DNA from: an uncultured Candidatus Saccharibacteria bacterium
GTDB lineage: Bacteria; Patescibacteriota; UBA1384; DTJR01
Assembly (NCBI GenBank): GCA_964487045.1
Contig: CAZAOT010000002.1
Coordinates: forward strand, 1-51,304
Length of the DNA stretch: 51,304 bases
Direction of reading: 5' to 3'
Shown here: positions 4,858-42,786 of the stretch, piece after piece
How positions within the stretch are numbered: the first letter of the stretch is position 1
Layout: each line of letters begins with the position of its first letter
Position numbers and translations under genes: made by a program
Notes under the pieces: generated by a model
Told to the model about the DNA's origin: nothing
Seen by the model: the letters and a program-made list of their open reading frames with translations, nothing else
Databases searched by the model: none

Positions 4858-4866
4858 AGATCAAAT

Positions 4867-5187: not shown

Positions 5188-5561
5188 AGTTACAACTTTC
5201 TCCCCTCCCTACTGAGGATGCTTTCGGCATCACTCAATTAATTTTTATATTAATTTGATCTCTGCCTTACGATTCAGTTTTATCACTCCTAGTTAGCGCT
5301 TGTCAAGCATTGCTGAGTTTCAAGCTCAATCAGGCTCACTTTCCACGACTCATTGTATGACAAGCTCATACTTCGCTAGACATTTATTCGTCTTGAAAGC
5401 TAGCCTGAAAACGGGGCCAATACCAATATTGTCGTGCAAATTTCATAAGCTTCGCACACTCTTTCAGAGAAAGCTTACTTATTCATTCGCCCATCATTGC
5501 TCGCTTAGCAACTTTTACTTCAATTTCATTTGCGCAAAAGATACTTGCTCGCCAAGAGAAA

Positions 5562-5957
5562 TCATCTGGAATGTTTGGCTGCGATTGATATAGCTTCTGT
5601 GATCATCTCTTGGGGGATGGCCTCATAGCTTTTGCCATCCCTGATAATAGTTCTGCAGTTACTTCCTGTCCCTGCGAGACAAGAACATGAGTGACAATAG
5701 TTTTCCGATGCTGTCGCCTCTAAAATATCCTCGATTTTTTGCCCGTTAATTAGCACTGTGTTTGAATCGGGCATTTTGTCGGCTTCGAGCTTCGTCTCTT
5801 TGTAGATAATCTCAATGTTCTTGAAATCTTTGTCTTTCAATATTGTTTCAATGGCTGCTTTGACATTATCGCCGGTATTGTTGCATCTGGTGCAGGTCTC
5901 ACCTTCTTTGTCGTAGTGCATCCACTCAATATGTAACTTTTTCAATTTCTCCTCCAA
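5562..5957 (-). CDS. DUF2703-like small Cys-rich protein
   Basis: CTRC near the N-terminus and CHSCSC...C later. Recalled to co-occur with ArsR/permease/thioredoxin-like genes; this comes from memory only. Confidence 0.45.
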   Translation of the reverse strand: MEEKLKKLHIEWMHYDKEGETCTRCNNTGDNVKAAIETILKDKDFKNIEIIYKETKLEADKMPDSNTVLINGQKIEDILEATASENYCHSCSCLAGTGSNCRTIIRDGKSYEAIPQEMITEAISIAAKHSR

Positions 5958-11878: not shown

Positions 11879-12073
11879 ATGGACGATCTAAGTGCAAATG
11901 CTCACATTAAGGCCAAAGAACCAAGCGAACTGCTCTCTATTGAAGAATGCAAGAAACAGCTTAAAAAGTATAACTTATCGGACGAGCAGATACTCCAGCT
12001 CAAGAACGGTTTAATTGGAATTGTAGACAGTATTATTAACTCGTATATAAATGAATTCGATCAAACCCGATAA
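11879..12073 (+). CDS. Small (64 aa) helical protein co-transcribed with the recombinase; function unknown
   Basis: Strong SD and ATG at 11879; overlaps the recombinase start. The track's 11828 start falls on the -35 box, so it was rejected. Confidence 0.35.
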   Translation: MDDLSANAHIKAKEPSELLSIEECKKQLKKYNLSDEQILQLKNGLIGIVDSIINSYINEFDQTR

Positions 12074-13706
12074 AGAATACACAAAGGCTGTTATTTACTG
12101 CCGCGTTTCCTCTGAGAAGCAGGTTAAGGAGGGAAACGGCTTAGATAGCCAAGAACATAGGTGCAGGGAATACGCTGCTTCTCTTGGCCTTGAGGTAGTA
12201 AATGTTTTCAGGGATGAAGGCATATCCGGCGGACTTTTTGATCGGCCGGCAATGAAATCGCTAATAAAGTTTTTGGATAATAATTGGCAAAACAAATACT
12301 GTGTCATTTTCGACGACCTCAAGAGATTTGCCAGAGATGTTCAGGTTCACATAAGACTAAAAACAGAACTAAAGGTTCGGGAAGCCAAGCCTTGCTGCTT
12401 AAATTATAATTTCGATGATAGCGCCGAGGGCGAATTTGTCGAGACAATTTTTGCAGCTCAGAATGAGCTTGAGCGCAAGCAAAATCGAAGACAAGTTTGC
12501 CAGAAAATGAAGGCTAGAATGGAGCGTGGATATTGGTGTCTTCAAGCGCCAGTTGGTTACGAGTACAAAAAAGATAAAGAGCATGGCAAGATTATTGTTC
12601 CTATTCCGGAAATTGCCAACATATTGGCGGAAGGACTGAATAAGTTTGCTGATGAACAGCTCGTCAGGCAAGTCGATTTACTTAACTTTTTCCTTTCCAA
12701 GAATTTGCAGGATTTGATGGGGATTAGGCGGCTTAGGTCTGATCATGTAAAGAACATTTTGACCAGGTCTTTGTATACCGGAATCGTTGAGTATCCTGAG
12801 TGGGGTGTAGAGCCGCGCGAAGGATATCACCAAGCCATAATCTCAAAAGATACCTACGAGCGAATACAAGTTCGCCTCAGAAGACCCGAGAGGAAACCAA
12901 GAGAAACAGATAGTTTGGAGTTTCCTTTGCGACGAGTGGTGAATTGTTCAGTCTGCGGTACTAAAATGACCGGTAGCGTCAGTAAAGGCAAAGTTAAATA
13001 TTATCCTCACTATACATGCAACAACAAAGAGTGCACCGCCAATCCGAAAAACATCACCGCTTCCAAAATGGAAGAAGATTATATTGATCTCTTGGATAAA
13101 ATCAAGGTCGAACAAGAGATATTGGAAATCGGCAAAATTGTCGCAACGAGAATATGGAAACAGAAAGTTAAAGATATTGACGCGAATCAAAAGATGAAAG
13201 AATCAGAGAAGAAAGAATTGGAACAAAAGATTTTTGAGTATATCGACTTAGTACCAAAAGCCAAATCAGACGCAGTAAGGACGCACTATGAGGCCAAAAT
13301 TGAGGATTTAGATAAGCGCATCAAAGAGCTGGATGAAAAAGTAGAAAATAAAAAAACGCCTGACTTTTTTGAGGCGCTTAAATTAACAATGAAATTCCTT
13401 GGAACACCGGCCGAAACGTGGGTAAACTCGAATAATCAGCTTAAAATTGTGCTTCACAATATGATATTTGCCGAGAACCCGAGTTATTGCTTAAATACCG
13501 GATTTGGAACACCTAAATTGTCGCTCCCATTCCATATAAAGGACCATATTGACGACGATAATGGTGATTTGGTGGACCCGACAGGATTTGAACCTGCGAC
13601 TTTCTGCATGCCATGCAGACGCTCTACCGCTGAGCTACGGGCCCAAAATGTATTTGATAACTTTGGTCTATATTACCATCTCCAAACCATATTTTCAACC
13701 CGTTAG
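12051..13706 (+). CDS. Large serine recombinase (Rec1)
   Basis: Resolvase-type catalytic N-terminus VIYCRVSSEKQ...DDLKRFARD, recombinase domain, Zn ribbon CSVCGTK...YTCNNKEC and a coiled coil. The last 45 codons run antisense across tRNA-Ala(GGC) and its promoter. Confidence 0.85.
   Translation: MNSIKPDKEYTKAVIYCRVSSEKQVKEGNGLDSQEHRCREYAASLGLEVVNVFRDEGISGGLFDRPAMKSLIKFLDNNWQNKYCVIFDDLKRFARDVQVHIRLKTELKVREAKPCCLNYNFDDSAEGEFVETIFAAQNELERKQNRRQVCQKMKARMERGYWCLQAPVGYEYKKDKEHGKIIVPIPEIANILAEGLNKFADEQLVRQVDLLNFFLSKNLQDLMGIRRLRSDHVKNILTRSLYTGIVEYPEWGVEPREGYHQAIISKDTYERIQVRLRRPERKPRETDSLEFPLRRVVNCSVCGTKMTGSVSKGKVKYYPHYTCNNKECTANPKNITASKMEEDYIDLLDKIKVEQEILEIGKIVATRIWKQKVKDIDANQKMKESEKKELEQKIFEYIDLVPKAKSDAVRTHYEAKIEDLDKRIKELDEKVENKKTPDFFEALKLTMKFLGTPAETWVNSNNQLKIVLHNMIFAENPSYCLNTGFGTPKLSLPFHIKDHIDDDNGDLVDPTGFEPATFCMPCRRSTAELRAQNVFDNFGLYYHLQTIFSTR
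13570..13644 (-). tRNA. tRNA-Ala (anticodon GGC), CCA encoded
   Basis: Hand-folded cloverleaf: GGGCCCG/CGGGTCC acceptor with G3:U70, D-stem GCTC/GAGC, anticodon loop ATGGCAT, T-arm GCAGG-TTCAAAT-CCTGT, ACCA. Confidence 0.9.
13670..13698 (-). promoter_or_regulatory. Promoter of tRNA-Ala(GGC)
   Basis: On the minus strand: TTGAAA, 17 nt, TAATAT, about 26 nt before the tRNA 5' end. Confidence 0.5.
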
Positions 13707-13792: not shown

Positions 13793-15325
13793 TCAAGGTT
13801 GGCGAGGTAAGATTAATGATTCGTCAAAGTAATCAACTTTTGGAAGACCGGAGAGCGAAATACATGTAGATGCAACATTGCTTAGACGAAGTCCTGGTTT
13901 TAATTTAAATTTGCCGTAATTGCTAACTACAATAAACGGAACTGGATTTTTCGTATGCTCTGTGTCTGGTCCGCCGTAGACTGGATTTACCATTTGTTCG
14001 ATATTACCATGGTCTGCAGTTAGGACTAAAATTATATCTTCGTCTAGGCAAACTTGGACTAACTCTTTTAGCACATCATCGATTGTCTGGACAGCCTGCA
14101 GGGCTGCCCTAAAATCACCAGTGTGGGCAACCATGTCTCCATTTGCAAAGTTGCATATATAAAATGGATAATCGGAGTTTTTTATATGTTTAATGAGTTC
14201 ATTTTTTACTCCAACTGCCGACATCTGTGGTTTTTGAGCATATGACTCAACAGCGGGAGAGGGTATTAGGATGCGATCTTCCATTGGATATGGTTCTTCT
14301 CGGTTGCCATTAATGAAAAATGTTACATGAGCAAATTTTTCTGTTTCAGCAATGTGAAATTGCTTTAAATTATTTTGAGAAATATATTCTCCGATAGTAT
14401 TTGATACTTTTGCTTTCTGAAATGCAATCTTAGCCTTTAGGTTTAATTCTTTTTCAATTCCATATGGGATAAATGAAATAAAGTCCAAATTAAGAAATTT
14501 ATCTCTTTTAAATTTATCAAAATCTTTTGCTAGAAATGCTTGAGACAACTGCCTGGTTCTATCAGATCTGAAATTGAAGAAAACGAGTATATCACCCTCG
14601 GAAATTCTTTTGCCACCCTCTATTATTCGAGGAGTAATATATTCGTCAGTTTCACCATCTCGATATGCCTGAGAGAGTGCGGCTAATGCAGATTTTGATT
14701 TAATTCCCTCGCCGTTTACTAGAGCATTATAAGCAGTCTGAGTTCTAACCCAATTTCCTTTTCTATCTAAGAGAACCCTGCCCATAATTGTAGCGATTTT
14801 TCCACATTTATACTGAGCTATAATTTGTTCTAAGCGATCAACAAATTCTAATCCCTTGTATACATCAGTATCTCTTCCGTCTGTAAATAGATGTAAATAT
14901 ATTTCGGGAGCATTCATGGAGCAGCATAATTCCAGAAGTGCGATTAAGTGGTCAATGTGAGAATGAATCCCTGCATCAGAAAGAATACCCATAAAATGAA
15001 TTGGAACTTTTCTTGCAATAGATGACTTAACCGCCTCGATTAATACCGGATTCTTGAAAAACTCCTTGTTCTTAATCGATCTATTTATTGCGGTAACATC
15101 CTGTTCGATTATGTTACCTCCACCTAAATTCATATGGCCTACCTCAGAGTTACCAACTTCGTGTCCAGGTAGTCCTACGTAACGTCCAGAGGCGTGCAGA
15201 AGGGTATTTGGATATGTTCTTAGTAATTTATAGAATGTTTTTGGATGAGCGGTTGAAATCGCATTACCACCCCAGCTAGAAGAAGACCCCCAACCATCAA
15301 GTATTACAAGAGCTAGCTTTCTCAT
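13793..15325 (-). CDS. gpmI: 2,3-bisphosphoglycerate-independent phosphoglycerate mutase, paralog 2
   Basis: LDGWG, NSEVGH (catalytic Ser), ANGDMVAHTG and TADHGN motifs; ATGA start/stop overlap with paralog 1. Confidence 0.8.
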   Translation of the reverse strand: MRKLALVILDGWGSSSSWGGNAISTAHPKTFYKLLRTYPNTLLHASGRYVGLPGHEVGNSEVGHMNLGGGNIIEQDVTAINRSIKNKEFFKNPVLIEAVKSSIARKVPIHFMGILSDAGIHSHIDHLIALLELCCSMNAPEIYLHLFTDGRDTDVYKGLEFVDRLEQIIAQYKCGKIATIMGRVLLDRKGNWVRTQTAYNALVNGEGIKSKSALAALSQAYRDGETDEYITPRIIEGGKRISEGDILVFFNFRSDRTRQLSQAFLAKDFDKFKRDKFLNLDFISFIPYGIEKELNLKAKIAFQKAKVSNTIGEYISQNNLKQFHIAETEKFAHVTFFINGNREEPYPMEDRILIPSPAVESYAQKPQMSAVGVKNELIKHIKNSDYPFYICNFANGDMVAHTGDFRAALQAVQTIDDVLKELVQVCLDEDIILVLTADHGNIEQMVNPVYGGPDTEHTKNPVPFIVVSNYGKFKLKPGLRLSNVASTCISLSGLPKVDYFDESLILPRQP

Positions 15326-16884
15326 CTTAAGGCTCCTAAAAGATTAATCCCGCTCATTTCAGCAGATTTTTCGATGCCCAATGACTGGGAAATCGTTGGG
15401 GCTATATCGGCAAGTATTCCGACTGGTTCGCTATTAAATAATTCATCCTTTGATATGTAGCGGCCTTTATATTTAAGGTCGCAATAGATAAACGGAACAG
15501 GATTGAGAGTGTGCTCTTTGTTTGGTTTGCCTGTAGCAAAATCAATCATTTCATCGCAATTACCATGGTCTGCGGTAATAATTACTCGATAATCTTTCCT
15601 AAGAAGCTCTCCGACTAATTTCCCCAATACCTGGTCAAGTATTGATACTGCGTTTTTGGTAGCTTCAAAATTTCCGGTATGACCAACCATATCTCCATTT
15701 GCAAAATTAGCTGCAATAAAATTAATCCCTGAATTTGCAGCTGCAACTATCTCGTTTGAAATTTCCACCGCTCTCATTTGTGGATACTGGTCAAAGCTTT
15801 TTACTTTCTTCGTCTGAATAATTTTATCGATTTCGCCATTAAATACTTTCTTATCGCCCCCTGCAAAGAAATATGTGATATGCGCAAACTTCTCTGTTTC
15901 TGCCACATGAAATTGCTTCAGATTATTCTGAGAAATTATTTGACTAAGTGGATTGCGCAGTGGATTTGTTTCGGGGTTGTTTAAATCGAGATTGGAAAAA
16001 AGCACATTAAGCCCCAGGTTGTCATCATAGGTAGTCATCGAATAGAAATTTCTAGTAATAGATCTTCGTTTGATGTCTGGTAAATTTGGATCCACAAAGG
16101 CGCGAGTCATTTGTACTGCTCTGTCAGATCTATAGTTTGTAAAAATAAAAACATCCTTAGTAAAATCAAAAACGTCTTCCGAGAAGCTTACCGGTTCAAT
16201 GAACTCATCGGTTTTTCCTGCGGCGTATGAATCTTCGATTACCTGATTCGGGTTGTTGGCTTTCTTACCAATTCCAGTTATTGCGTCATATGCAAGCTGT
16301 ATCCTGTCCCAATTTTTATCTCTGTCCATCGCGTAATATCTTCCCATCATTGATCCAAAACTAGTTAGTTTGCCAATTTGCTTAGAGATGTGGTCTAAAA
16401 ATAACTTAGATGATTTTTCCGCCGTATCTCTTCCATCAGTTATTGCGTGAAGGATAATTTTTGTTTTGGGCTTATCGCTTTTAATTAACTTAACTAAACT
16501 AATCAAATGATTAATATGTCCATGGACAGCTCCATCGGACATTACAAACAAGACATGAATGTTAGATCCTGACTCAGCGGAGTCAATGATTTTTTTATAC
16601 TCAGGTTTTTTTCTAAATTCACCATTTGTAAGTTTTAGAGTTATTTGTGGCAGATCTTGCAAAACAATTCTACCTAGGCCGATCGCAGTATGACCAACCT
16701 CACTAGAGCCAAATTCTCCCCAGGGAAGACCAACTTCTTCAGCCGAAGCTTTTAGGAGACACTTTGGGAATACTGGCAGGATAGCATCGAGATTCGGAGT
16801 AGGAGTATTTAAAATAGCATTTCCAGTGAGTTCTGGAGTTATTCCAAAACCATCCAATATCAGAAGCGCTACTTTTTTTGACAC
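15322..16884 (-). CDS. gpmI: 2,3-bisphosphoglycerate-independent phosphoglycerate mutase, paralog 1 (GTG start)
   Basis: LDGFG, SSEVGH, ANGDMVGHTG and TADHGN motifs; SD GGAGCGAGG upstream of the GTG. Confidence 0.85.
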   Translation of the reverse strand: MSKKVALLILDGFGITPELTGNAILNTPTPNLDAILPVFPKCLLKASAEEVGLPWGEFGSSEVGHTAIGLGRIVLQDLPQITLKLTNGEFRKKPEYKKIIDSAESGSNIHVLFVMSDGAVHGHINHLISLVKLIKSDKPKTKIILHAITDGRDTAEKSSKLFLDHISKQIGKLTSFGSMMGRYYAMDRDKNWDRIQLAYDAITGIGKKANNPNQVIEDSYAAGKTDEFIEPVSFSEDVFDFTKDVFIFTNYRSDRAVQMTRAFVDPNLPDIKRRSITRNFYSMTTYDDNLGLNVLFSNLDLNNPETNPLRNPLSQIISQNNLKQFHVAETEKFAHITYFFAGGDKKVFNGEIDKIIQTKKVKSFDQYPQMRAVEISNEIVAAANSGINFIAANFANGDMVGHTGNFEATKNAVSILDQVLGKLVGELLRKDYRVIITADHGNCDEMIDFATGKPNKEHTLNPVPFIYCDLKYKGRYISKDELFNSEPVGILADIAPTISQSLGIEKSAEMSGINLLGALR

Positions 16885-17032
16885 TTGTGCCCCTCGCTCC
16901 GTGAATTGCGCTCCAAGGCAGGAAGCAATTCCGGAAGTCCCGTCACTTTGATCCCTACTTGCCTGCCGGTAGGCAGGTTCGCAAATTTCTTAGATTAAGA
17001 ATATTGCGAGAGGGTGAAAAGTGACTGGGATA
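16885..17032 (-). repeat. Structured intergenic repeat, copy A (5' of gpmI)
   Basis: Shares ordered sequence blocks and stem positions with 18167-18290 (see findings). Confidence 0.6.
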
Positions 17033-18567: not shown

Positions 18568-18585
18568 TGGTGGGCGAGGTGGGAA
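18568..18585 (-). repeat. Exact 18-nt copy of the tRNA-Leu(CAA) 3' end (candidate distal att site)
   Basis: tggtgggcgaggtgggaa is identical to 36185-36202 in the same orientation. On the minus strand it is followed by a strong GAAA-tetraloop hairpin (18538-18566) that looks like a native tRNA terminator. Confidence 0.6.
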
Positions 18586-31628: not shown

Positions 31629-32765
31629 TTATACTTTGCTATTTAATGACTTTACTGTTTTCTCGATCAATGCAATAAATCTGCTTATCGTATCGTCTGT
31701 GAGTAGTTCTAAATCCTTAATTGCTTTTCTTTTCTCATCGTAGCTGGGTAGTGTACGATAGCAATCAACATATTCGCTGATGAATGGCTTCAATTTCGGA
31801 ATATTTTCAAACGGCCACTCGCAATATCCAAACTGGAGCTCTTCTACATCCTGCTCGTTCGAGGGAGCTTTGAAAAATAAGAATGAGAATTTTGTTGTGT
31901 AGCCGGGTACGGCTAAGTCTTTAGGATATTTGGTCATTAGTGAAAAGCCGTTTTTACGCCAGACAACTTCTACACTTTCTTCTGACTCAAATTTTTTCAG
32001 AAGTGCTTCGGCAATTCTCTTGCCATTTTGTGATAATAATTTTATAAAGTCCTCTTTGGCAATCGGTGTTCGATCATAGCTGTCGTTAGACTTGGATTTC
32101 TCAGAGTAGGTAATATTTTTTCGTGGAGGGTTGGCTAGACTGGGTATCAGAAAATGCTCTTGAGCATCACCCACTAACTGCATTTCAACTACGTAAAAGT
32201 CGATTTCCTGACCCGTTCGATCATTCAGATAGTTCGCGATATCTTTAAGCTCTTGATTGGCCTGATCGACAACAATCAGAAGAGTAAAACTGCCGAGACG
32301 AAGCCGCTTTTCCAGGCCTTCTTTGAATTCAGATTCTGAGAAATTCTCTTCTCCTATCTTTTCTTTCATATATTCAGACAACGAACCTTGAAAATTGACC
32401 TTACGCTGGAGTAGGAATTTCCGAAAACAACTACTTTCAATCTCTTCATAAGATTTATTCCAAAGATAGGCGGCATAACCGAGAATTTGGCCGACAACAG
32501 TCCTCTTTACTTCAGGATTCTTCTCAAGCTTTGTTTCGATCAAAGCAATGTGGCCTTGAGGACTGACCGCCAAAACATCCAGCGCACCATTTTGAAGGCT
32601 TACTTCCTTTCCTATTGTGACGAATTTGGAATCATACCCTATTTCATCAAGCGGAAGAGTGTTAACATCGTTTGTTAATAGATCTTGAAGTTGAGCTTCA
32701 TCGTTATAGTATCGCTTTTCAACCGGAACCCATTTCTTATCCGGATTTAAATGTAATATTTTCAT
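31629..32765 (-). CDS. Hypothetical protein with an N-terminal NucS/DUF91-like PD-(D/E)xK nuclease signature
   Basis: GALDVLAV...GHIALIETKL...VGQILGYAAY; start placed at ATG 32765 (SD GAGG) rather than TTG 32798. Confidence 0.45.
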   Translation of the reverse strand: MKILHLNPDKKWVPVEKRYYNDEAQLQDLLTNDVNTLPLDEIGYDSKFVTIGKEVSLQNGALDVLAVSPQGHIALIETKLEKNPEVKRTVVGQILGYAAYLWNKSYEEIESSCFRKFLLQRKVNFQGSLSEYMKEKIGEENFSESEFKEGLEKRLRLGSFTLLIVVDQANQELKDIANYLNDRTGQEIDFYVVEMQLVGDAQEHFLIPSLANPPRKNITYSEKSKSNDSYDRTPIAKEDFIKLLSQNGKRIAEALLKKFESEESVEVVWRKNGFSLMTKYPKDLAVPGYTTKFSFLFFKAPSNEQDVEELQFGYCEWPFENIPKLKPFISEYVDCYRTLPSYDEKRKAIKDLELLTDDTISRFIALIEKTVKSLNSKV

Positions 32766-33058
32766 TTCTTTGCCTCGATTAACCGGAAGCGGATACAAAA
32801 AGCCCGCCGCCAGCGATAGCTTTTTACGGCTACCTGCAATCCTTTCGGACTACAACCGATCAAGGTGCTCTGACGACGAGCCCATTATCCTTGATCGGTT
32901 TTTATGCCATGCCTTAGAAAAATCTAAAGTTTAGGCAATGTATTCAAAATTTACAATTAACAACCTTAATGTTAGCAGATTTACTCCTGTTGTAAAGACA
33001 TTTCGGGTGATTTTTTGCTTGACTTAGCCCTGTTATTCGGGCTTCCTTTCCCTTACAA

Positions 33059-34432
33059 ATGAGCCAAGAGACCAAATTAACGAATACTGCACCGTTTCAG
33101 CTACCACAAGAAGTAAATGGGGTGTTTGCCGGGCCAATTCAGCCGCCAGATCCGGAAACGAGATACTGCCTTTACGCTCGCAAATCAAGTGAAGATGACG
33201 AGAGGCAAGCACTTTCGATCGGTTCACAAATTAACGAGATGACCAGGCAAGCAGAAACGCAAAGTTTACAGGTCGTTGAAGTTCGGCAAGAAAGTCATTC
33301 GGCAAAATATTCTGGACAAAGACCCATATTTCAACAGCTGATTGGCGATATCCAAAACGGATTATTTAACGGAATTTTAAGTTGGGCGCCCGACCGATTG
33401 TCGAGAAACGCTGGTGACTTGGGATCTATTGTTGATTTGATGGATCGAGGATTATTGAAAGAAATTCGGACTCATGGGCAAGTTTTTACAAATTCACCTA
33501 ATGATAAGTTCCTGCTGATGATTTTATGTTCACAAGCAAAGCTAGAGAATGATAATCGAGGAATCAATATCAAAAGAGGGATGAGGGCAAAATGCGAAAT
33601 GGGCTTCCGACCCAATATGGCTCCAATTGGATACCTGAATGATAAGTACGGCAATAAAGGTCAGCGAAAGGTTTATCCAGATCCTGATAGAGCACCGATC
33701 ATCAAAGAAGCTTTTGAGAAAGTCGGCTATCACGGTTGTTCTGGTCGTCAGGTCTATCTTTGGCTTAAAGACGAGGTTGCGTTTGTAACTCGAAGCGGAA
33801 AGCCGATGACTTTAAGCACAATTTATCGAACTTTGAGTAATCCCTATTATACCGGAGTATTCGAAGTGCCTGAGGGTAGCGGCAATTGGTATAAAGGGGC
33901 ATATGAACCGATCGTTTCGAAAGAGCTATTTAAAATTGTACAAGAAAAATTAACCGTAGTGCCAAAGAGCATGCCCGGAACCAAACAATTTGATTTTACC
34001 AAGTTATTAAAATGCGGAGAGTGCGGTTCTGGAATCACGGCACAGGAAAAAATTAAGCATTGGGGAAAAAGATATGTTTATTACCACTGTACGAAGTTGA
34101 GAAATTTTGAATGTCCTGAGCGATATACAAACGAAGAAAAATTAGTACAAGAATTTATAAGAATTCTATCGAAGCTGACAATCGATCAGATCAAATCCAA
34201 AAGAGAGATTTATGGCAAATTTGAGCAATTTTGTAAATTCAGATCGGACGTATTGGATTTCGAGCTAAAACCGAACCAAGCAAATTATATTGATCAGACA
34301 CGAATTAACATCGAAAAATTTGTTGAACATATTTTCGAAAAAGGTAATCGCGAAGAGAAGCGGTCGCTAATCGGTTGTCTAAGCGCAAAACTAATTCTGA
34401 AAAATCGAGAAGTTTGTTTGTTAGAACTCTAA
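33059..34432 (+). CDS. Large serine recombinase (Rec2), paralogous to Rec3
   Basis: YCLYARKSSEDDERQALSIGSQ, APDRLSRN, Zn ribbon CGECGSGITA...YYHCTK; blockwise similar to 36986-38590. Confidence 0.85.
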   Translation: MSQETKLTNTAPFQLPQEVNGVFAGPIQPPDPETRYCLYARKSSEDDERQALSIGSQINEMTRQAETQSLQVVEVRQESHSAKYSGQRPIFQQLIGDIQNGLFNGILSWAPDRLSRNAGDLGSIVDLMDRGLLKEIRTHGQVFTNSPNDKFLLMILCSQAKLENDNRGINIKRGMRAKCEMGFRPNMAPIGYLNDKYGNKGQRKVYPDPDRAPIIKEAFEKVGYHGCSGRQVYLWLKDEVAFVTRSGKPMTLSTIYRTLSNPYYTGVFEVPEGSGNWYKGAYEPIVSKELFKIVQEKLTVVPKSMPGTKQFDFTKLLKCGECGSGITAQEKIKHWGKRYVYYHCTKLRNFECPERYTNEEKLVQEFIRILSKLTIDQIKSKREIYGKFEQFCKFRSDVLDFELKPNQANYIDQTRINIEKFVEHIFEKGNREEKRSLIGCLSAKLILKNREVCLLEL

Positions 34433-36184: not shown

Positions 36185-36271
36185 TGGTGGGCGAGGTGGG
36201 AATCGAACCCACAATCCCTTGCGAGAATAAGTTTTTGAGACTTACGCGTATACCAGTTCCGCCACTCGCCC
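36185..36271 (-). tRNA. tRNA-Leu (anticodon CAA), class II, CCA encoded
   Basis: Hand fold: GGGCGAG/CUCGCCC acceptor, anticodon arm UAAGU-CUCAAAA-ACUUA, 14-nt variable arm with GCAA loop, T-arm GUGGG-UUCGAUU-CCCAC, ACCA. Confidence 0.9.
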
Positions 36272-36936: not shown

Positions 36937-36985
36937 CATGAGCTTGTACTTGCCTGCCGGCAGGCAGGGCTCAGCTGGTAGAGCA

Positions 36986-38590
36986 CTACACGCGATCCGT
37001 TAAATATTGGGCTGGTAGTTCAGCTGGTAGAACACTGCATTCGCATTGCAGAGGTAGAGGGTTCGAGTCCCTCCCAGTCCACCATTTTACATTTCGTGCC
37101 AATTCTTCCGCTTCGCTCGAGCCAACGGCTCTTGCTTGCGGTGGCAAATTCGAGAGTAATTCATATTGTTTTTGAAAATTCATAATGAGTTTTCCGCCCA
37201 GCAAAATGCGGTTCGAGCCGGCGGTTTTAAGAAAATTTCTCATAGCGGAGAAATTTTTTGTTTTAACAAAATTTCCAGCTTGGTTGGCGTCAATTATCCA
37301 GTTTTTCAAGAGTTCGAGCCAATGATTTCCTTTTCGTTCAAAATCTCTTAACTTTTCTTCAAACTCGGCTTTTTGCTCAATCAGTTTATTCTTCTTTTCT
37401 TTGTACTCTGAAAGCTCTATCGCTTGGTCTAAGTAAGCGTCAGACAAACGATCAAGCCGAGTTTTGATGGTTGCAATTTTGTTGTTTAGATTTTGAGCGA
37501 AAACAACCGACGAGTGGTATTTATCTTTTTCCCAACCTTGAACTTTTAGCATATACTTTTCTTTCCACTCGTCGGGCAAAGAAACTTTTTGACAGAGATC
37601 TTCAATTTGTTTTGCCAAAACTTCTTCGCAAACAAATTTTCTCTCGGCACAAACTTTGGTTTTGCTTTTATGAGTACAACGGTAGTAAACATATTCTCGG
37701 CCACTTGGCTTGAACTTTCTCTCGGCAGTTATGGCATAACCGCAACTTCCGCATTTGGCAAAACCAAGAAATTGAAGTTCTCTTTCCTTTCGTTTGTGCC
37801 GAGGTTTCGAGTGATCTTTTAGGGCAACTTGTATTTTGTCAAAAGTTTCTTTGGAAATCATTGGCTTATGAGAACCTTGATAAAGTTCTCCGTCATAACT
37901 TATGACGCCGTAATAAAATGGCTTCGATAGTAGTTTTTGAATTGATGACAAAGCCATTTTATGTCCGTCTTTTCCAACCAAGCCAAGAGAAAACATTTTT
38001 GCTTGAATTCCAGTCAGCGAAAACTCGCCGGTAGCAAAAAGCTCCAGCGCTTTCTTAACTAGCGAAAAAGTTTTGGGATTTGGGTCGATAGTTCGAAGTC
38101 TTGGCTCGTTGAAGTAACCGAGTGGAGCTTTTGAAGGCAATTCTCCTCGGCGAAGTTTTTGCCGTATTCCTCGCAAAATGTTTTCTCTTAAATTGTCGGT
38201 GTAATATTTGGCCTGACCAAAGGCAACGCTTAACATGAACTTTCCTTGTGGTGTTGCTTCAAACCAGAAAGTTGGGAATTTTAGCGAGGTGATTTTGCCT
38301 GTATCAACCAAGTAAATTACTCTTCCACCATCAACAGAGTTTCTGGCAAGTCGATCGGGATTCCAAGCTAAAATTCCCGAAGCGTTGCCTTTTTCAAGCT
38401 CTAAAAGCATTTGGTTAAAGATTGGTCGCCCAGGCTCCTTGGCGGTTTTGCTTTCGGTAAACTCACGAACAACAAACAAGTTATTAGTCCTGGCAAAATC
38501 TCTTAGTTCTTGGAGTTGGGCTTCAATAGACAAAATTTGTCGCTCTTCCTCTTCGGAAGATTTACGACAGTAAATGAAATACTTTTCCAT
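36986..38590 (-). CDS. Large serine recombinase (Rec3)
   Basis: YFIYCRKSSEEEERQILSIEAQ, NPDRLARN, Zn ribbon CGSCGYAITA...YYRCTH, coiled coil. The last 32 codons (after WW) are the antisense of the entire tRNA-Ala(CGC) plus 23 nt beyond it. Confidence 0.85.
   Translation of the reverse strand: MEKYFIYCRKSSEEEERQILSIEAQLQELRDFARTNNLFVVREFTESKTAKEPGRPIFNQMLLELEKGNASGILAWNPDRLARNSVDGGRVIYLVDTGKITSLKFPTFWFEATPQGKFMLSVAFGQAKYYTDNLRENILRGIRQKLRRGELPSKAPLGYFNEPRLRTIDPNPKTFSLVKKALELFATGEFSLTGIQAKMFSLGLVGKDGHKMALSSIQKLLSKPFYYGVISYDGELYQGSHKPMISKETFDKIQVALKDHSKPRHKRKERELQFLGFAKCGSCGYAITAERKFKPSGREYVYYRCTHKSKTKVCAERKFVCEEVLAKQIEDLCQKVSLPDEWKEKYMLKVQGWEKDKYHSSVVFAQNLNNKIATIKTRLDRLSDAYLDQAIELSEYKEKKNKLIEQKAEFEEKLRDFERKGNHWLELLKNWIIDANQAGNFVKTKNFSAMRNFLKTAGSNRILLGGKLIMNFQKQYELLSNLPPQARAVGSSEAEELARNVKWWTGRDSNPLPLQCECSVLPAELPAQYLTDRV
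37009..37084 (+). tRNA. tRNA-Ala (anticodon CGC), CCA encoded
   Basis: Hand fold: GGGCTGG/CCAGTCC acceptor with G3:U70, D-stem GTTC/GAAC, anticodon arm CTGCA-TTCGCAT-TGCAG, T-arm GAGGG-TTCGAGT-CCCTC, ACCA. Confidence 0.9.
37079..37214 (+). repeat. Inverted repeat arm A (covers the Rec3 3' coding end)
   Basis: Reverse complement of 38707-38842. The inner ~104-105 nt have 3 mismatches; the outer about 30 nt next to CCACCA are diverged. Confidence 0.85.
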
Positions 38591-38706
38591 TTTTCCCTCC
38601 TTAAATTTTGTCTATAACCAAATGCTTTTATACACCGACAATTTTCTGGAAATTTTGTTACCGCCGGGGCTCTAAAGAATTTCATTCTTTTCTGTGCTTC
38701 GCACAG

Positions 38707-38842
38707 GAACCGCATTTTGCTGGGCGGAAAACTCATTATGAATTTTCAAAAACAATATGAATTACTCTCGAATTTGCCCCCGCAAGCGAGAGCCATTGGC
38801 TCGAGCGAAGCGGAACAAATTAAATTAAATACAATGTGGTGG
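38707..38842 (-). repeat. Inverted repeat arm B (pseudo-copy of the Rec3 3' end upstream of the Rec3 promoter)
   Basis: The + strand reads RILLGGKLIMNFQKQYELLSNLPPQARAIGSSEAE..WW, matching Rec3 residues near the C-terminus. It ends on tggtgg, which is also the first 6 nt of IR-L. Confidence 0.85.
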
Positions 38843-39020
38843 TATGTTTTGAACGAAGCTCGAACTTTTTTCGAAAATGCTGAAATTTAATACTGATGCT
38901 CGCGACCCGCAAAGCGGGTCGCTCGCTTTATTTCCTTTTTTTCAAAATACATTTTTGCGCGGCCGTGGAGGGGTGTGGGGAGGAAACGGCCGCGCTAGCT
39001 TTTTTGGGGCGGGGCGGAAA
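38837..39020 (+). repeat. 184-bp inverted repeat, left arm (IR-L)
   Basis: Reverse complement of 42387-42570 with one mismatch (38844 a vs 42563 c). Contains hairpins at 38902-38922 and 38957-38995, each followed by a T-run. Confidence 0.95.
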
Positions 39021-39100
39021 AAATTAGACACAGATCAAATGCTTATGCTAATTATAGTATGTAGCATTAAAATTAGCAATTAGCTTATACTTGTATTAAA

Positions 39101-39313
39101 ATGAAGAAAGGTATCTTAATAAAATTTGGTGACCGAGTCCGCGAAGAACGCTTGAAACTTGGATTGTCGCAAGAAGAACTTGCTGTTAAAACTGGAGTTC
39201 ACCGAACCTATATTGGCATGATCGAACGAGCCGAGAAAAATATTACCTTGTTAAATATTGAAAAGATAGCAGGGGCTTTAAAAATCACTGTGAACCAACT
39301 ATTTAGAAAATAA
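39101..39313 (+). CDS. XRE-family HTH transcriptional regulator (70 aa)
   Basis: LGLSQEELAVKTGVHRTYIGMIERAEKNITLLNIEKIA. Confidence 0.8.
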   Translation: MKKGILIKFGDRVREERLKLGLSQEELAVKTGVHRTYIGMIERAEKNITLLNIEKIAGALKITVNQLFRK

Positions 39314-39317
39314 TTAT

Positions 39318-42300
39318 ATGGATGAATTTGGAAAATATACTCCAGAGGAAGCTTTCGACGAATCACAGCGTCTTGGAAATTCCACTGGATCTAATAAAAA
39401 TGAATTAGATGAAGCAGAATTTCAATTACTAAATGAATCTCAGCGAGAACTCGCTGATAGAATTATTGAAGACCCAGCTATTTCAATCCCAGAAGTTTAT
39501 TTTGAAAGACAACAAAATCCCGAAGCAGTCAGAAGTGTGCTATCTTTGAATATTGTACAGTCAGCATTACGAAGAGCATTGATTGATTCAATTTTTGACG
39601 GGGATGTCGGGTTAACTGAAAGTCTAATAAAAGAATACGAGTTACCAGAAAGTGTAATTTCTTCTTCTGAGTTGCAAACAAAGATAAAAGACGAAGCAAT
39701 ATTTCTTTTAGGTCATTATGATTTTGGAAAATTCCAGAAATTATTTGATCTATTTGGTTTGCCAGACGCAATTGGTGAATATAATTTAGATTTCAATATA
39801 TTTTTTAGAATAGATCGTCGATTTACTTTCTCTAGTATTTTAGAATTTGGTAGGTTTATCCAACAGCATGAAACATATTTTGGTTGGCTGGAGAATGAGA
39901 AACTTAATGGACGAGAGTCTGAATGGTTATTTGATGAACATGAGTTAGATAGCATCAAACAAAAATACCTTAGACCAGAAGAGGCCCATGTTTTGGTGTT
40001 GCATGGATTTACAGTTTCATCCAATTGGACAGAAACAGGTGGAAAAGATAGCTATGAAGAAGCGTTAAAAGTACTGTCAGCGACGGAATCACTTAAACGC
40101 TGGCAAGAATCGGATGAATTAGTGCAGTTTCTAGAAGTTTTTGATGAGGATGATCAAATAGAACCGACCCATGGGGAAAATGGTGTCCAAGAAAGGCAAA
40201 CCGAAGAAGCGACAACAATATTTGAAAGAGCGTCAAAAAGATTTGGTTACCGGTCAATGTTTCAATTCTGTTTTAGGGATGATGTAGGGATGCATGACAT
40301 GCTTCATGCGTACGATGATATCGAAGACAGTCTGTTCAAGTCCTCTGGACTCAAACCAAGTGAGTTTTTTGGCCAGATACTTTTTCAAGTTAAAATGGAT
40401 TCAGTCAACTACCAAGATGGTGCGAGTTACCACCGGCTTAATACGATCGCACAATCATTCAATCCACAAGAAGCCCAGAAAGTAATAAAAGAATTATCAC
40501 AAATTCCCGAATTTGCCGAAATGTCCGCTTCATACAAGACGGTGGAAGACATTTTTTCATCATGGGCCAGTTTAAAAAAATTCCATAAGCTCCAGACAAT
40601 CCTTGGACAGCAAGATCTACTCAACCAGTTAAAAACTCAGGGACATACGAAACTAATTGATTATATACGCCGGTTGGCTTTTGGCGGATCAAGTGTAAGC
40701 ATCGAGAAAGTACTACAATTTTGGAAAGATCCTAGTGGCTTTTTAAATATCAGCGAACGACATGCAAGAAGAGTTCATGAGTTGAAAAAGCCATCACATT
40801 ATACAGAAATACCTCACCTTGACCTAACTCCCGAAGAACTTCGCGACTCACTGGTTGAAGGAGACCTAGATTCCCTTCAAGTTTTCCACCCATTAGAAAT
40901 AGAATATACCATATCATCTAGTGCTGGAAATTTAAGAGAAAATTTGACAGAAGCATTGGGCAGTCGGGAAGCGGGAATAAAGCCAAGAGCTAAAAATCCA
41001 AAAAAATTGTATTCTGCAGTTAAAAATATTTTAGACCCAGCTGGTATCAGTCTTAAGGATTATCTTCAAGGTCAAGCTGACTTACCATCTGGTATGGAAG
41101 ATCAATTGGGTATTATCTTGAAAGACGATTCTGCAGGGCTTGTGGACCACGTTGAGGTGTATCGAGCAAAGATATATTCCAAAAGCGATCCCGAAAGTGT
41201 TGTTGCTGGAAATGATACTTCATGTTGTATGCCTTTTGGATCAGGAAAAAATAATATTTACACATTCAACCCTATCTGCTCAACGTTTGTGGTCCAGAGA
41301 CAAAACAACAATGGAAGTTGGCGGACGATAGCGCAAAGTATTTTGACAGAAGATGTTGATATTCATGAGAATATACATGAGTTAATGCAACGAATTGACT
41401 TTGCTGATAAAAGTCAATTAAGAGAATTTATTCCTCAGAGCGTATTGGAGCAATCGCCATCTGTGGTTACCGCCGACAATATTGAAGTATCACCTAATTT
41501 TGCTGCTTCCGAACAATCCAGTTTAATATTGGAACAAATATATCGTGATTTCTTTCAAGAATATAGCCGCCGATATTTACAAGGCGAGTCAAATGATGGC
41601 TCTAGAATAATCGTTGGAAAAGGGTATTCAGAAATCATGGGTCATCTACCAGAAGTAAACAATACATTTTTACCACGGACACCAGTTGCATACTCCGACA
41701 ATATAATGCAAACCGCCTATCAGTTAGACTTGTGGGGGGAGCCGAATCCTGTTATGGACTGGAAGGGGCGCATCACAGAGACATACACACCGATAGATCA
41801 GTCATCAGACTCTAGAGTTCTTTCAGATGTTGGTATCCGCGGCTTGTCATTTCTTGGTTTTAGAGACGCTCTGCCTGTTTCGTTCATCGAGGGCAAAGCA
41901 TATGAGGACAACCCAGAGCTTCTTGTATATTTACATAATATGGAAAATGCCTTAATAGCAAAAGACATCAACAACTCCAGAAAGAAACGTTCGAATATGA
42001 GCTTGAAATGGCAAGATTCTACCGGGAAAATTCATGGTTACATTCTTGCGTACGAAGGAGTTAGCGTAAGGGCTGCCGATACAGTTTCTCATCAAGCCCA
42101 AGAACGAATATTATATATTTCCGACCTAGCTTCTGATTCCGAATCGAAATTAGCCGGCGGGTACCTCATCAAAGGTTTTTTCGAACTATATAGAAGGAAT
42201 TATCTCGAGAAGGGTGATTTTATTCCAATTGTTTTTGAGGGTAGAGAGCAAACATCATATTCAATAGTAGCAAAACAAATTAGTAGGATCGCATCAAATC

Positions 42301-42386
42301 TAGGATATGAATGTTCTCTCGAGGAAGGTGAGGCCTATAAACATGGAAATGACATAATGCACCCCGTGGTCCTTCGATTTAAATAA
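39318..42386 (+). CDS. 1022-aa orphan protein, possible GNAT-like C-terminal domain
   Basis: Long uninterrupted ORF 4 nt after the XRE stop. The C-terminal about 170 aa (GYILAYEG...ILYISDLASD...LAGGYLIKGFFELY...IVFEGRE) resembles an acetyltransferase fold. No other motif was recognised. Confidence 0.7.
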   Translation: MDEFGKYTPEEAFDESQRLGNSTGSNKNELDEAEFQLLNESQRELADRIIEDPAISIPEVYFERQQNPEAVRSVLSLNIVQSALRRALIDSIFDGDVGLTESLIKEYELPESVISSSELQTKIKDEAIFLLGHYDFGKFQKLFDLFGLPDAIGEYNLDFNIFFRIDRRFTFSSILEFGRFIQQHETYFGWLENEKLNGRESEWLFDEHELDSIKQKYLRPEEAHVLVLHGFTVSSNWTETGGKDSYEEALKVLSATESLKRWQESDELVQFLEVFDEDDQIEPTHGENGVQERQTEEATTIFERASKRFGYRSMFQFCFRDDVGMHDMLHAYDDIEDSLFKSSGLKPSEFFGQILFQVKMDSVNYQDGASYHRLNTIAQSFNPQEAQKVIKELSQIPEFAEMSASYKTVEDIFSSWASLKKFHKLQTILGQQDLLNQLKTQGHTKLIDYIRRLAFGGSSVSIEKVLQFWKDPSGFLNISERHARRVHELKKPSHYTEIPHLDLTPEELRDSLVEGDLDSLQVFHPLEIEYTISSSAGNLRENLTEALGSREAGIKPRAKNPKKLYSAVKNILDPAGISLKDYLQGQADLPSGMEDQLGIILKDDSAGLVDHVEVYRAKIYSKSDPESVVAGNDTSCCMPFGSGKNNIYTFNPICSTFVVQRQNNNGSWRTIAQSILTEDVDIHENIHELMQRIDFADKSQLREFIPQSVLEQSPSVVTADNIEVSPNFAASEQSSLILEQIYRDFFQEYSRRYLQGESNDGSRIIVGKGYSEIMGHLPEVNNTFLPRTPVAYSDNIMQTAYQLDLWGEPNPVMDWKGRITETYTPIDQSSDSRVLSDVGIRGLSFLGFRDALPVSFIEGKAYEDNPELLVYLHNMENALIAKDINNSRKKRSNMSLKWQDSTGKIHGYILAYEGVSVRAADTVSHQAQERILYISDLASDSESKLAGGYLIKGFFELYRRNYLEKGDFIPIVFEGREQTSYSIVAKQISRIASNLGYECSLEEGEAYKHGNDIMHPVVLRFK

Positions 42387-42570
42387 TTTCCGCCCCGCCC
42401 CAAAAAAGCTAGCGCGGCCGTTTCCTCCCCACACCCCTCCACGGCCGCGCAAAAATGTATTTTGAAAAAAAGGAAATAAAGCGAGCGACCCGCTTTGCGG
42501 GTCGCGAGCATCAGTATTAAATTTCAGCATTTTCGAAAAAAGTTCGAGCTTCGTTCAAAACACACCACCA
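42387..42570 (-). repeat. 184-bp inverted repeat, right arm (IR-R)
   Basis: Starts on the nucleotide after the TAA stop of the 1022-aa ORF and ends in ccacca. Confidence 0.95.
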
Positions 42571-42589
42571 AGTTATTGCCCAATTTAAC

Positions 42590-42637
42590 GGGCTGAACAT
42601 TGCGGAGATGGCAGTTCGATTCTGCCTAGGTCCACCA
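42590..42637 (+). pseudogene. tRNA-Ala 3'-half remnant (anticodon-loop end, T-arm, acceptor with U70, CCA)
   Basis: GGGCTGAA-CATTGCGG-AGAT-GGCAG-TTCGATT-CTGCC-TAGGTCC-ACCA. It lacks the D-arm and the 5' anticodon stem, and parallels positions 37044-37084 of the intact tRNA. Confidence 0.65.
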
Positions 42638-42786
42638 ATTTGTATTTTGTTTAATTTGTTCCGCTTCGCACGGGATCAAACCCAACGATTCGGCTGGTAA
42701 TTCTGTATAAAGGCGAATAAATTGTATATGATTTCTTGAAAAAGAATCTATAAAATCATAATTAGCGATTCGCTAGAAAGGATATA

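Follow-up and report, generated by a model that had tools for sequence, protein, structure and literature searches.

Large serine integrases such as phiC31, Bxb1, A118/LI, SPbeta SprA, CcrAB and XisF combine Resolvase, Recombinase and zinc ribbon domains with a long coiled coil and act on att sites with a short core; they join attP to attB in one direction, which a directionality factor reverses. In the characterised enzymes of this type, the outer motif of attB is 5 bp nearer the middle of the site than that of attP, and attL and attP are not a permitted pairing (PMC11722253). Rec3, a recombinase coded in the 51,304-nt stretch of DNA from an uncultured Candidatus Saccharibacteria bacterium analysed here (the window), has the same domain order and the same type of att sites, but its family differs from these integrases in targeting the 3' end of tRNA or tmRNA genes, in carrying attP within the last codons of the integrase itself and in having a second, inverted attP.

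The Myxococcus xanthus phage Mx8 uses a tRNA gene as its integration target. The coding sequence of int contains attP, and on integration the gene acquires a new 3' end and yields an altered integrase (IntP/IntX; PMC6070905). The Rec3 element likewise has attP within the integrase ORF and has its C-terminus replaced on integration; however, Mx8 is a phage of ~50 kb with a single attP and no stored inverted gene end, and it uses a tyrosine recombinase, whereas Rec3 is a serine recombinase. The first-pass annotation gave no precedent for either the self-inverting switch or the IS-like unit that it proposed. This holds for the architecture, of which literature searches directed at it found no description, but not for the exchange of the integrase 3' end upon integration, which is known in Mx8.

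In the yeast 2-micron plasmid (Flp/FRT), two identical inverted repeats that bear the recombination targets split the circle into two segments, one of which contains the recombinase gene. The same two-repeat, two-segment layout is found in a free form of a relative of the Rec3 element (L170, see below), but Flp is a tyrosine recombinase and the 2-micron is a replicating plasmid, with inversion serving copy amplification and no integration. The Hin, Gin, Cin and Pin/PinQ switches are similar in that a serine recombinase is associated with a segment bounded by inverted sites. Enzymes of the Hin/Gin type have ~190 amino acids and a C-terminal HTH, need an enhancer and Fis and are encoded outside the flipped segment, whereas Rec3 has 503 native residues and is encoded inside the segment, the sites of which are of the attL and attP types. 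In engineered cassette exchange (MiMIC, phiC31 landing pads), a cassette between inverted serine-integrase sites cannot be deleted, only inverted or exchanged; these systems are man-made, whereas the Rec3 layout is natural and its flanking sites are attP and attR (or attL). Tycheposons are reportedly small islands in tRNA genes with tyrosine or large serine recombinases and variable cargo. The Rec3 family is also made of small islands at tRNA genes, with a cargo that consists mostly of restriction-modification systems. To our knowledge, neither an inverted double-repeat layout nor an attP inside the recombinase ORF has been reported for tycheposons or other tRNA-targeting defence islands.

Recombinase gene and the inverted copy of its 3' end

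The Rec3 gene (36986 to 38590, minus strand) codes for 534 amino acids with the Pfam domains Resolvase, Recombinase and Zn_ribbon_recom. The resolvase catalytic domain (PF00239) covers residues 5 to 150 (E = 1.8e-19) and includes the R-x-S nucleophile motif, as YCRKSS at residues 7 to 12, in which R9, K10 and S11 are invariant among 43 homologues; the Recombinase domain (PF07508) and the zinc ribbon (PF13408) are also present, and long helices at residues 340 to 387 and 393 to 420, in the structure model of a 90%-identical homologue, correspond to the coiled coil. An exact look-up of Rec3 in an assembly index gave no record.

As proposed in the first-pass annotation, the gene is flanked by inverted copies of its own 3' end. 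Positions 37079 to 37214 and 38707 to 38842 form a 136-nt inverted repeat that is 90% complementary, and a base-by-base comparison gave 14 mismatches, of which the outer 31 nt, adjoining CCACCA/TGGTGG, contain 11 and the inner 105 nt just 3. With BLASTN, the 136-nt arm matched the locus over the inner 112 nt with an E value of 2.7e-50, which excludes a likeness by chance. The homology restarts past the inner end of the arm (GAGCCGGCGGT...), after a 34-nt insertion containing a hairpin in the upstream copy. The copy within the gene (P' arm copy 1, 37079 to 37214, minus strand) comprises the last 45 sense codons of native Rec3, residues 459 to 503, which encode a beta-hairpin and the first half of the C-terminal helix in the model of the 90%-identical homologue. 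The upstream copy (P' arm copy 2, 38707 to 38842, plus strand) is an inverted fragment of the recombinase 3' end.

What follows each copy is different, and the two translations quoted earlier proved correct, with the gene reading ...NVKWW-TGRDSNPLP... and a 57-amino-acid ORF at 38717 to 38890 reading ...NTMWW-YVLNEARTFFENAEI*. From the tail classes of 120 homologues, residues 1 to 503 of Rec3 are native and residues 504 to 534 are a read-through of the tRNA antisense in place of the native tail, as the ORF crosses a tRNA-Ala(CGC) gene in antisense. The native tail (YVLNEARTFFENAEI*) is stored at 38843 to 38890 (plus strand), in frame with the upstream fragment; comparison with homologues and related loci identifies it as the conserved C-terminus of the family, followed by the terminators of the gene itself. 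The information content of the stored tail by codon position is 1.32/1.63/0.88 bits, a periodicity that indicates selection at the protein level. Translation of the fragment ORF as a peptide of its own found no support, as there is no conserved start or ribosome-binding site across subfamilies.

The region upstream of the recombinase (38591 to 38706, minus strand), aligned by eye in 45 loci, is unique and lies inside the invertible unit. It contains a motif conserved in the family, AAATTGTCGGTGTA, at 38631 to 38644, which we infer to be a -35 box, with a putative -10 box 17 nt on, although a promoter consensus scanner did not list the site. A hairpin at 38692 to 38706 abuts the inner end of the upstream arm. 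Rec1 and Rec2, coded in the same window, are not accompanied by inverted copies of their own 3' ends, so this feature is specific to the Rec3 family.

Attachment sites

Rec3 is the large serine recombinase of a 5.5-kb element (37085 to 42570) integrated at the 3' end of the tRNA-Ala gene. This gene (tRNA-Ala(CGC), 37009 to 37084, plus strand, detected with ARAGORN) forms the B (attB-type) half-site, and the attL core CCACCA (37079 to 37084, plus strand) corresponds to nt 71 to 76 of the tRNA and, read in antisense, to the two W codons of Rec3. The internal attP (attP2) has its core at 38837 to 38842, TGGTGG on the plus strand and inverted relative to attL and attR, with the upstream gene-end fragment as the right half of this intact site. 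The attR core CCACCA (42565 to 42570, plus strand) marks the end of the element and is followed by B', the host-side sequence. There is also a second inverted-repeat pair, 38837 to 39025 and 42382 to 42570 (189 nt, 98% identity), which brackets the XRE cassette and has the TGGTGG core in common with the first pair. The three att sites in the window therefore generate two adjacent inverted-repeat pairs, one of 136 nt around the recombinase and one of 189 nt around the cargo. P arm copy 1 (38837 to 39025, plus strand) contains the core, the tail, which is the core-proximal part of the P half-site, a rho-independent terminator (38902 to 38922) and a second hairpin, which is GC-rich and has a run of T after it. 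P arm copy 2 (42382 to 42570, minus strand), the left half of attR, shows three differences from copy 1 in 189 positions and has the mirrored terminator at 42505 to 42485.

Alignments of 17 loci revealed that attL, attP2 and attR share only CCA(C). Sequence comparison places the crossover in the first CCA(C), which is nt 71 to 73(74) of the target tRNA and lies antisense to the second W codon. The break of homology at WW, already noted in the first pass, is functional, as it is the crossover core common to attL, the internal attP and attR. In the consensus of 56 B half-sites, the T-arm motif GTTCGAG begins 18 nt ahead of the core CCA, and GTTC starts 18 nt before the core in B (n = 56) versus 23 nt in P (n = 51), so that the B and P half-sites of the element show the 5-bp offset between attB and attP of the large serine integrases. 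The P' half-site has no clear mirror of the P motif and no consistent register for the central dinucleotide. From the junctions, AC alone is excluded as the crossover dinucleotide, by the attR of L025 (CCAAAT), and the host-side B' of attB is not conserved.

Together, these comparisons show that the attP of the family lies inside the 3' end of its own recombinase and that the copy in the window integrated into tRNA-Ala via the attP of the full-length gene, so that past WW this gene now continues into tRNA antisense (attL). They also show a second attP, intact and inverted, upstream of the gene, made of the 136-nt gene-end fragment, the native tail and the terminators.

After attR, positions 42600 to 42672 (plus strand) are an older attL remnant, in which the 3' half of a tRNA (42600 to 42637) precedes 35 nt from the 3' end of a related recombinase gene; within it, 42614 to 42672 is a direct copy of the arrangement tRNA 3' end, CCACCA and recombinase 3' end. 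This is the scar of an earlier insertion at the same site. P'-like remnants after attR were also seen in L006, L007, L015, L028 and L072. Two other candidates in the surroundings were rejected: the partial tRNA-like sequence at 36950 to 36998 and the tRNA half at 42600 to 42637 are not one split tRNA, since their acceptor strands are not complementary, and a 16-nt inverted match (36996 to 37012 and 42578 to 42596) as a further element was not significant in BLAST.

Integrated and free forms

One related locus, L170, has a period of 8,026 nt and contains two inverted 448-nt repeats (100% identity), with one attP in each and no tRNA, which separate two unique segments, R with the recombinase (1.5 kb) and C with the cargo (5.6 kb). 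It was recognised only via an internal direct repeat of 3,955 nt and could be either a circular form or a tandem array. The same element is found integrated at a tRNA in L010, where the repeat and R are 100% identical to those of L170 and 4.3 kb of cargo are 99.7% identical, with the identity ending exactly after WW. The same element is seen, then, both integrated (L010) and with its ends joined (L170), which shows that in the free form two inverted attP-containing repeats (P arm, core and P' arm) part R, of 1.5 kb, from C, which in the family has 1.5 to 6 kb. A search for circular contigs by terminal repeats found none but L037, a palindromic contig that is probably an artefact.

Cargo genes

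In the window, the cargo comprises two genes. The first (39101 to 39313, plus strand) codes for an HTH_3 protein (Pfam, 6.9e-16; PADLOC Control_protein, 1.1e-20) of the restriction-modification control (C) protein type. The second (39318 to 42386, plus strand) codes for a protein of 1022 amino acids with no match in Pfam, PADLOC or NCBIfam, and its stop codon is inside the right P arm. Across related loci, the cargo is variable, ranging from 1.5 to 6.2 kb, and consists mostly of restriction-modification systems. A Pfam scan of 20 cargo proteins from 13 loci recovered methylases, nucleases, HTH proteins and other types, with some proteins left unassigned, and gave no match to a replication initiator; amplification of the 2-micron kind was rejected for lack of a replication gene in the cargo scanned. 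The loci with cargo that we examined have no conserved gene for a directionality factor, and R contains no conserved extra gene.

Distribution among Patescibacteria

The repeat characterises a large family of small mobile islands in Patescibacteria that is apparently undescribed. More than 5,900 related proteins were found at E <= 1e-20, and each of two collection scans confirmed at least 550 to 570 loci of the family, which spans many Patescibacteria lineages and includes a closed genome. A scan of viral contigs gave only four weak or partial matches and no free form, so Rec3 is not a typical phage integrase. All 97 targets that could be classified are tRNA or tmRNA genes. Every one of the 76 unique related loci that extend 330 nt or more upstream has the upstream inverted arm, with a median length of 124 nt (range 62 to 166 nt, commonly 124 or 133 nt). 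Of 74 arms that reach 60 nt, 35 match their partner copy at 100% and 65 at 95% or more, while the arms of different loci have a median identity of 61.6%. The second repeat pair, flanking the cargo, was found in 35 loci (median 203 nt, 100% identity).

Orientation of the recombinase body

The first-pass annotation predicted that recombination between the arms would flip the recombinase body, give it a different tail and point it towards the cargo. The sequences support this outcome of a flip, the alternative tail being the native conserved C-terminus followed by the gene's own terminators. Some relatives have the body reversed or a tRNA beside the upstream arm: in L002, L004, L146 and L042, the fragment arm directly adjoins a tRNA or tmRNA gene. 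At the tmRNA, both orientations were found in elements that are ~90% identical (L001 and L003 versus L002 and L004). Among consensus contigs across populations, however, 81 unique loci have the orientation of the window versus one to four in the other. Where the arms are longer than k, a de Bruijn assembly can produce flipped contigs, or contigs with a recombinase plus native tail, as artefacts. The contig of L169 ends exactly 127 nt past the core, and L002 has a k-mer coverage of ~1. Gene calls of the recombinase plus tail were not accepted as proof of a flipped body, since several lie at the end of a contig that stops exactly one k-mer past the core.

A freely running switch, in which the recombinase often flips its own body and two isoforms alternate by phase variation, would fit the inverted attL and internal attP cores, since their recombination would turn the body round and restore a site of each type, and it would also fit the two orientations at the tmRNA and the arms being kept identical. 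The self-inverting switch suggested in the first pass is upheld as far as reversed bodies exist in relatives, but free-running flipping fits poorly with the census, as unbiased inversion should leave about half of the consensus sequences flipped instead of the one to four seen against 81. It would also need the attL and attP pairing that characterised large serine integrases do not permit (PMC11722253), and the promoter moves with the gene, so inversion alters only the last ~16 residues and the terminators. We consider this explanation unlikely.

The duplicated attP might instead be a neutral relic of an ancient inverted duplication, with arms kept identical by gene conversion alone, no regulatory role and integration via the attP of the gene being simply the usual outcome. 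Gene conversion would suffice to explain the identity of the arms, and the weak homology past the arm after the hairpin insertion is what a decaying longer duplication would look like. Yet 76 of 76 loci in very divergent lineages keep the arm, with recurring lengths, when neutral repeats would often be deleted; the stored tail is under protein-level constraint; and two equivalent attP sites should yield products at about 50:50, not 81:1-4. A neutral relic is, in our opinion, rather improbable.

Very little speaks for the IS-like transposon also raised in the first pass, a mobile unit at 37079 to 38842 with 136-bp terminal inverted repeats and a large serine recombinase. The recombinase is indeed bracketed by inverted repeats, and in L042 the unit lies between two complete tRNA-Ala genes. 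However, the unit is bordered by a tRNA at one end and by the tail of its own recombinase gene at the other: beyond one arm there are always the in-frame conserved tail and terminators, then cargo and a matching attR. Insertion takes place only at the CCA ends of tRNA or tmRNA genes, with no target duplication, and the free form L170 holds the cargo and both repeats rather than the unit alone. The element does not end at the 136-nt arms but extends through the second repeat pair and 1.5 to 6.2 kb of cargo to attR, and we regard this reading as highly improbable. Finally, an upstream copy that is the decayed remnant of a second recombinase gene (by nested or tandem insertion), or a repeat created by the assembly, can practically be dismissed, for although tandem accretion occurs (42600 to 42672 and the P'-like remnants in five loci) and L037 is palindromic, a scar would vary in extent and diverge, whereas related loci contradict this with recurring arm lengths and 95 to 100% identity in 65 of 74 independent loci, obtained with many assemblers and including a closed genome.

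A proposed integration lock and inversion reset

The explanation that we find probable for the whole set of observations is the att architecture of a small integrative element together with a lock at integration and a reset by inversion. In the structure model of the homologue, WW sits in the middle of a helix at residues 493 to 520, with a pLDDT of 83 to 92 over residues 481 to 510 that becomes lower towards the C-terminus, so in this model integration halves a confidently predicted C-terminal helix of Rec3. The integrase would then be weak or inactive and the element locked in place, which would explain the 81 loci in the state of the window versus one to four in the other. If both attP sites are equivalent, this bias calls for a further assumption, be it such a lock, selection or a cis preference. 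Were R to be inverted between the long homogenised arms, the gene would be rejoined with the stored tail and terminators, and the integrase would be re-armed. Either the homologous recombination machinery of the host or an active recombinase of the family, working on the cores, might carry out this inversion; as canonical integrases do not join attL with attP, an inversion made by the enzyme would need relaxed rules. Gene conversion between the arms may be what keeps them identical. The arrangement suggests, without proving it, that the loss of the tail locks the integrase and that inversion resets it. In nearly all integrated copies, the recombinase ORF is intact, which also fits an enzyme that could still be active.

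More tentatively, direction might be set without any accessory factor, with the element rewriting its own integrase, switched off at integration and re-armed by inversion of the body; this extension is possible, if rather doubtful. If it is true, one gene and three att sites would make a self-resetting ratchet, and re-arming would serve excision or further moves.

Significance for Patescibacteria

At a practical level, the repeats explain the frequent contig breaks beside this gene in assemblies of these genomes, and integrases with a defined attP and an attB at the universally conserved 3' end of tRNA-Ala or tmRNA genes may interest genome engineers. Rec3 also provides a natural case of a large serine integrase that edits its own C-terminus at the crossover with no evident directionality factor, which makes the control of direction without such a factor directly testable. 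Mobile elements of Patescibacteria are poorly known, and a very large family would here be united into a single type of mobile element whose architecture is unusual and fixed. Given their mainly restriction-modification cargo, these elements are probably a main vehicle of defence-gene exchange in these bacteria with tiny genomes.

Repeats and genes around the recombinase

The large serine recombinase gene Rec3 lies within an inverted repeat of 136 nt (37079-37214 and 38707-38842) that is 90% complementary, as the first-pass annotation had described, and the distribution of the 14 mismatches also agrees with that description, 11 falling in the outer 31 nt and the remaining 3 in the inner 105 nt. 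The Rec3 open reading frame (36986-38590, minus strand, 534 aa) reads antisense through a tRNA-Ala(CGC) gene (37009-37084, plus strand), so its final 31 residues (TGRDSNPLPLQ...) are tRNA antisense. The upstream copy of the gene end is included in a 57-aa open reading frame (38717-38890) terminating in WW-YVLNEARTFFENAEI and a stop, where WW denotes the codons antisense to the tRNA CCACCA.

Two features were missed at first: a second inverted pair of 189 nt with 3 mismatches (38837-39025 and 42382-42570), which has the same TGGTGG start and encloses an XRE gene and a gene for a 1022-aa protein, and a direct copy of the tRNA 3' end, CCACCA, and 35 nt of a recombinase 3' end (42614-42672). The 1022-aa cargo protein (39318-42386, plus strand), adjoining a restriction-modification control protein, matched nothing in Pfam, PADLOC, or NCBIfam and may represent a nuclease or defence protein of a type not yet recognised.

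The native C-terminus

Rec3 contains Resolvase, Recombinase, and Zn_ribbon_recom domains, and because its best curated matches, XisF and CcrB, each score far under their own cut-offs, we regard it as a large serine recombinase without a named subfamily. Among 5.8 billion proteins searched, 5,943 relatives scored at E <= 1e-20. The best 120 of these all have lengths of 501-571 aa and share conservation as far as ...N..WW, after which three classes are seen: a stop codon directly after WW, tRNA antisense (e.g., TRQDSNLRPP and SRGELNPRPK), and a conserved tail, WW-C(L/V)L(D/E)(E/K)(V/I/A)RT(F/H)FEQNP(D/E). The earlier claim that homology breaks at WW is supported. As the upstream copy in the window has the third type of tail, what had been taken for an alternative tail is the native C-terminus of the family. 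Information at codon positions 1, 2, and 3 of 85 unique tails was 1.32, 1.63, and 0.88 bits, a count in which some columns were preset by the search pattern; this periodicity indicates that the tail is selected as a peptide and not just as a DNA site.

In the AlphaFold model of a tail-bearing homologue 90% identical to Rec3 (mean pLDDT, 70), WW sits in the middle of a single helix (residues 493-520; pLDDT 83-92 over 481-510, dropping C-terminally), which integration is predicted to halve, and the start of P', one half-site of attP, corresponds to a beta-hairpin (458-472). A rho-independent terminator is located in the other half-site, P, directly past the tail stop codon (38902-38922; mirror copy, 42505-42485). 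The motif AAATTGTCGGTGTA, between the arm (the inverted copy of the gene end) and the start codon, is conserved in all subfamilies and can be read as a putative -35 box, with a -10 box 17 nt further; such a promoter would move together with the gene body.

Conservation of the architecture

We fetched 80 metagenome and 80 genome loci, plus several through exact protein look-up. Upstream sequence of 330 nt or more before the recombinase start was available for 76 unique loci. All of them have an inverted copy of the 3' end of the gene itself, which spans at least 60 nt in 74 and 25-59 nt in 2. Arms have a median length of 124 nt and are 100% identical within the locus in 35/74 cases and at least 95% identical in 65/74, while the median identity of the same arm between loci is only 61.6%. 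Near identity within loci and divergence between them point to concerted evolution and not to a scar, against the possibility raised in the first-pass annotation that the upstream copy is a decayed remnant of a second recombinase gene. Nor is the element an insertion sequence, as it runs on past the 136-nt arms to attR, or a Hin-type switch, whose small recombinase gene lies beyond the inverted DNA.

In 81 unique loci, WW of the gene leads into a tRNA or tmRNA and WW of the upstream fragment into the conserved tail. Integration targets were tRNA-Ala (83), tmRNA (6), tRNA-Val (4), and the tRNAs for Ile, Glu, Gly, and Ser (1 each), with tRNA-Leu in one additional locus. The second inverted pair, composed of the tail and downstream DNA (median, 203 nt; 100% identity), surrounds a cargo of 1.5-6.2 kb in 35 loci with enough flank. 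The cargo differs among loci and often combines an HTH controller, a methylase, and a nuclease, that is, restriction-modification systems. One cargo holds a tyrosine integrase (L005, 3353-4165), and in L169 a Replic_Relax (PF13814) gene (4844-5737) lies just within the cargo, adjoining an attR-type site at 4343. Hosts belong to many Patescibacteria lineages, including one closed Woesebacteria genome; the closest relatives among the matches listed (88-93%) include two Berkelbacteria MAGs, one labelled uncultured Saccharibacteria, one candidate division WS2, and one unclassified bacterium.

The other window recombinases, Rec1 and Rec2, are without an inverted copy of their own 3' end. Rec1 (12051-13706, plus strand, 551 aa), a second large serine recombinase unrelated to Rec3, also runs antisense into a tRNA-Ala(GGC) (13570-13644, minus strand) at its CCA end. 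The 3' end of tRNA-Leu(CAA) recurs as an exact 18-nt direct copy 17.6 kb from the gene (18568-18585; 36185-36271), and the interval, which looks like another integrated island, contains Rec2 (33059-34432), a 1385-aa HTH protein, and a PDC-S11-like protein (31629-32798). Adjacent paralogous genes for 510 and 520 aa (13793-15325 and 15322-16884, minus strand) give rise to several direct repeats with a spacing of 1553-1556 nt and 77-83% identity.

Attachment sites

Aligned in tRNA sense in 17 loci, the three junctions read tRNA...GT-CCA-CCA + P' (attL), P...ACA-CCA-CCA + P' (internal site), and P...ACA-CCA-C(TG/AA/TC...) + host (attR). Only CCA(C), tRNA nt 71-73(74), is common to all three, and the CCA end of the tRNA is restored by the P' arm of the element. 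GTTCGA begins 18 nt before the core in the tRNA half-site and GTTCtGA 23 nt before it in the P half-site, the same outward shift as in the rule deduced for large serine integrases, whose attP motif lies 5 bp further out than that of attB (PMC11722253). The alignment thus gives the window the order attL (37079-84), recombinase, inverted intact attP (38837-42), cargo, and attR (42565-70). An older attL remnant (42600-42672) and P'-like remnants beyond attR in five other loci suggest that incoming copies enter on the side of a resident copy that faces the tRNA.

Just upstream of the tRNA-Ala, 36945-36998 contains a perfect 16-nt palindrome, TGCCTGCCGGCAGGCA, which occurs again near 16956-16977, together with a partial tRNA-like sequence that includes a D-arm (GCTCAGCTGGTAGAGC). 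At the attL of L076, the motif CCGGCAGGCAGGG is likewise found before the T-arm.

Free form and other arrangements

One contig (L170; 12,034 nt, coverage 28) contains no tRNA along its length and corresponds to what excision is predicted to yield, a circle or perhaps a tandem array. Its ends form a 3,955-nt direct repeat, so that the period is 8,026 nt. Two inverted 448-nt repeats with 100% identity, one with the fragment and tail and the other with the full-length gene and tail, provide two inverted attP that divide the recombinase segment (R, 1.5 kb) from the cargo (5.6 kb). L170 matches the integrated L010 at 100% in the repeat and R and at 99.7% in 4.3 kb of cargo, the match ending exactly past the WW codons. 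L039 (1-3520), 88-96% identical to L170, has the opposite cargo end adjoining the fragment-side repeat and is a cargo-flipped isomer, with a wrong path possible as the ~448-nt repeat exceeds the assembler's k.

The fragment arm abuts tmRNA in L002 and L004, where the gene is directed away from it, and tRNA-Ala in L146. The L002 gene terminates in the tail (coverage is very low), L053 and L074 have tails on both flanks, and L169 ends exactly 127 nt past the core. These flipped states are themselves only suggestive, because arms longer than the assembler's k permit wrong turns. In L042 (149-2023), two complete tRNA-Ala genes (CGC and TGC) converge on the recombinase unit from either side, and the arms of the unit are different enough for misassembly to be excluded. 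Recombination of the internal attP with another tRNA gene would be expected to give this arrangement, and would imply that the chromosome underwent an inversion or deletion. Taken together, these loci indicate that tRNA sites are natural recombination partners of the second attP.

L037 (1-7017) is a perfect palindrome with inverted ends of at least 200 nt and two mirrored element copies, probably an assembly or amplification artefact. Contigs very often start or end within a few hundred bases of the recombinase gene, and several (L011, L013, L044, L046, L057, and L063) start inside the arm. The repeats are a systematic source of assembly breaks in Patescibacteria genomes.

Proposed mechanism

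We are highly confident that this is a serine-integrase element whose attP lies in the end of its own gene and is also present as an inverted duplicate; in the window, integration went through the attP of the full-length gene. An integrase 3' end swapped on integration is known from phage Mx8 (PMC6070905), which has a tyrosine recombinase and a single attP, so the earlier remark that no precedent was known stands for the architecture, within the literature searched, and not for the swap. We found no description of the architecture in the full-text literature, whose coverage was incomplete, making this absence of evidence only. With its two repeats, the circle is similar to the 2-micron plasmid in topology alone.

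As both attP are identical over hundreds of bases, both integration orientations would be expected equally, and the bias of 81 loci in the window orientation versus 1-4 flipped implies that elements stay only briefly in the tail-bearing state and persist in the tail-less one. In the simplest reading, the enzyme without its tail would have little or no activity. With the stored gene end, it could then be reset through inversion of R, either by host homologous recombination, which the long identical arms would suit and which would homogenise them too, or by the enzyme at the cores if attL can serve as attB, as hinted by the tandem insertions. We put forward this lock-and-reset part only tentatively.
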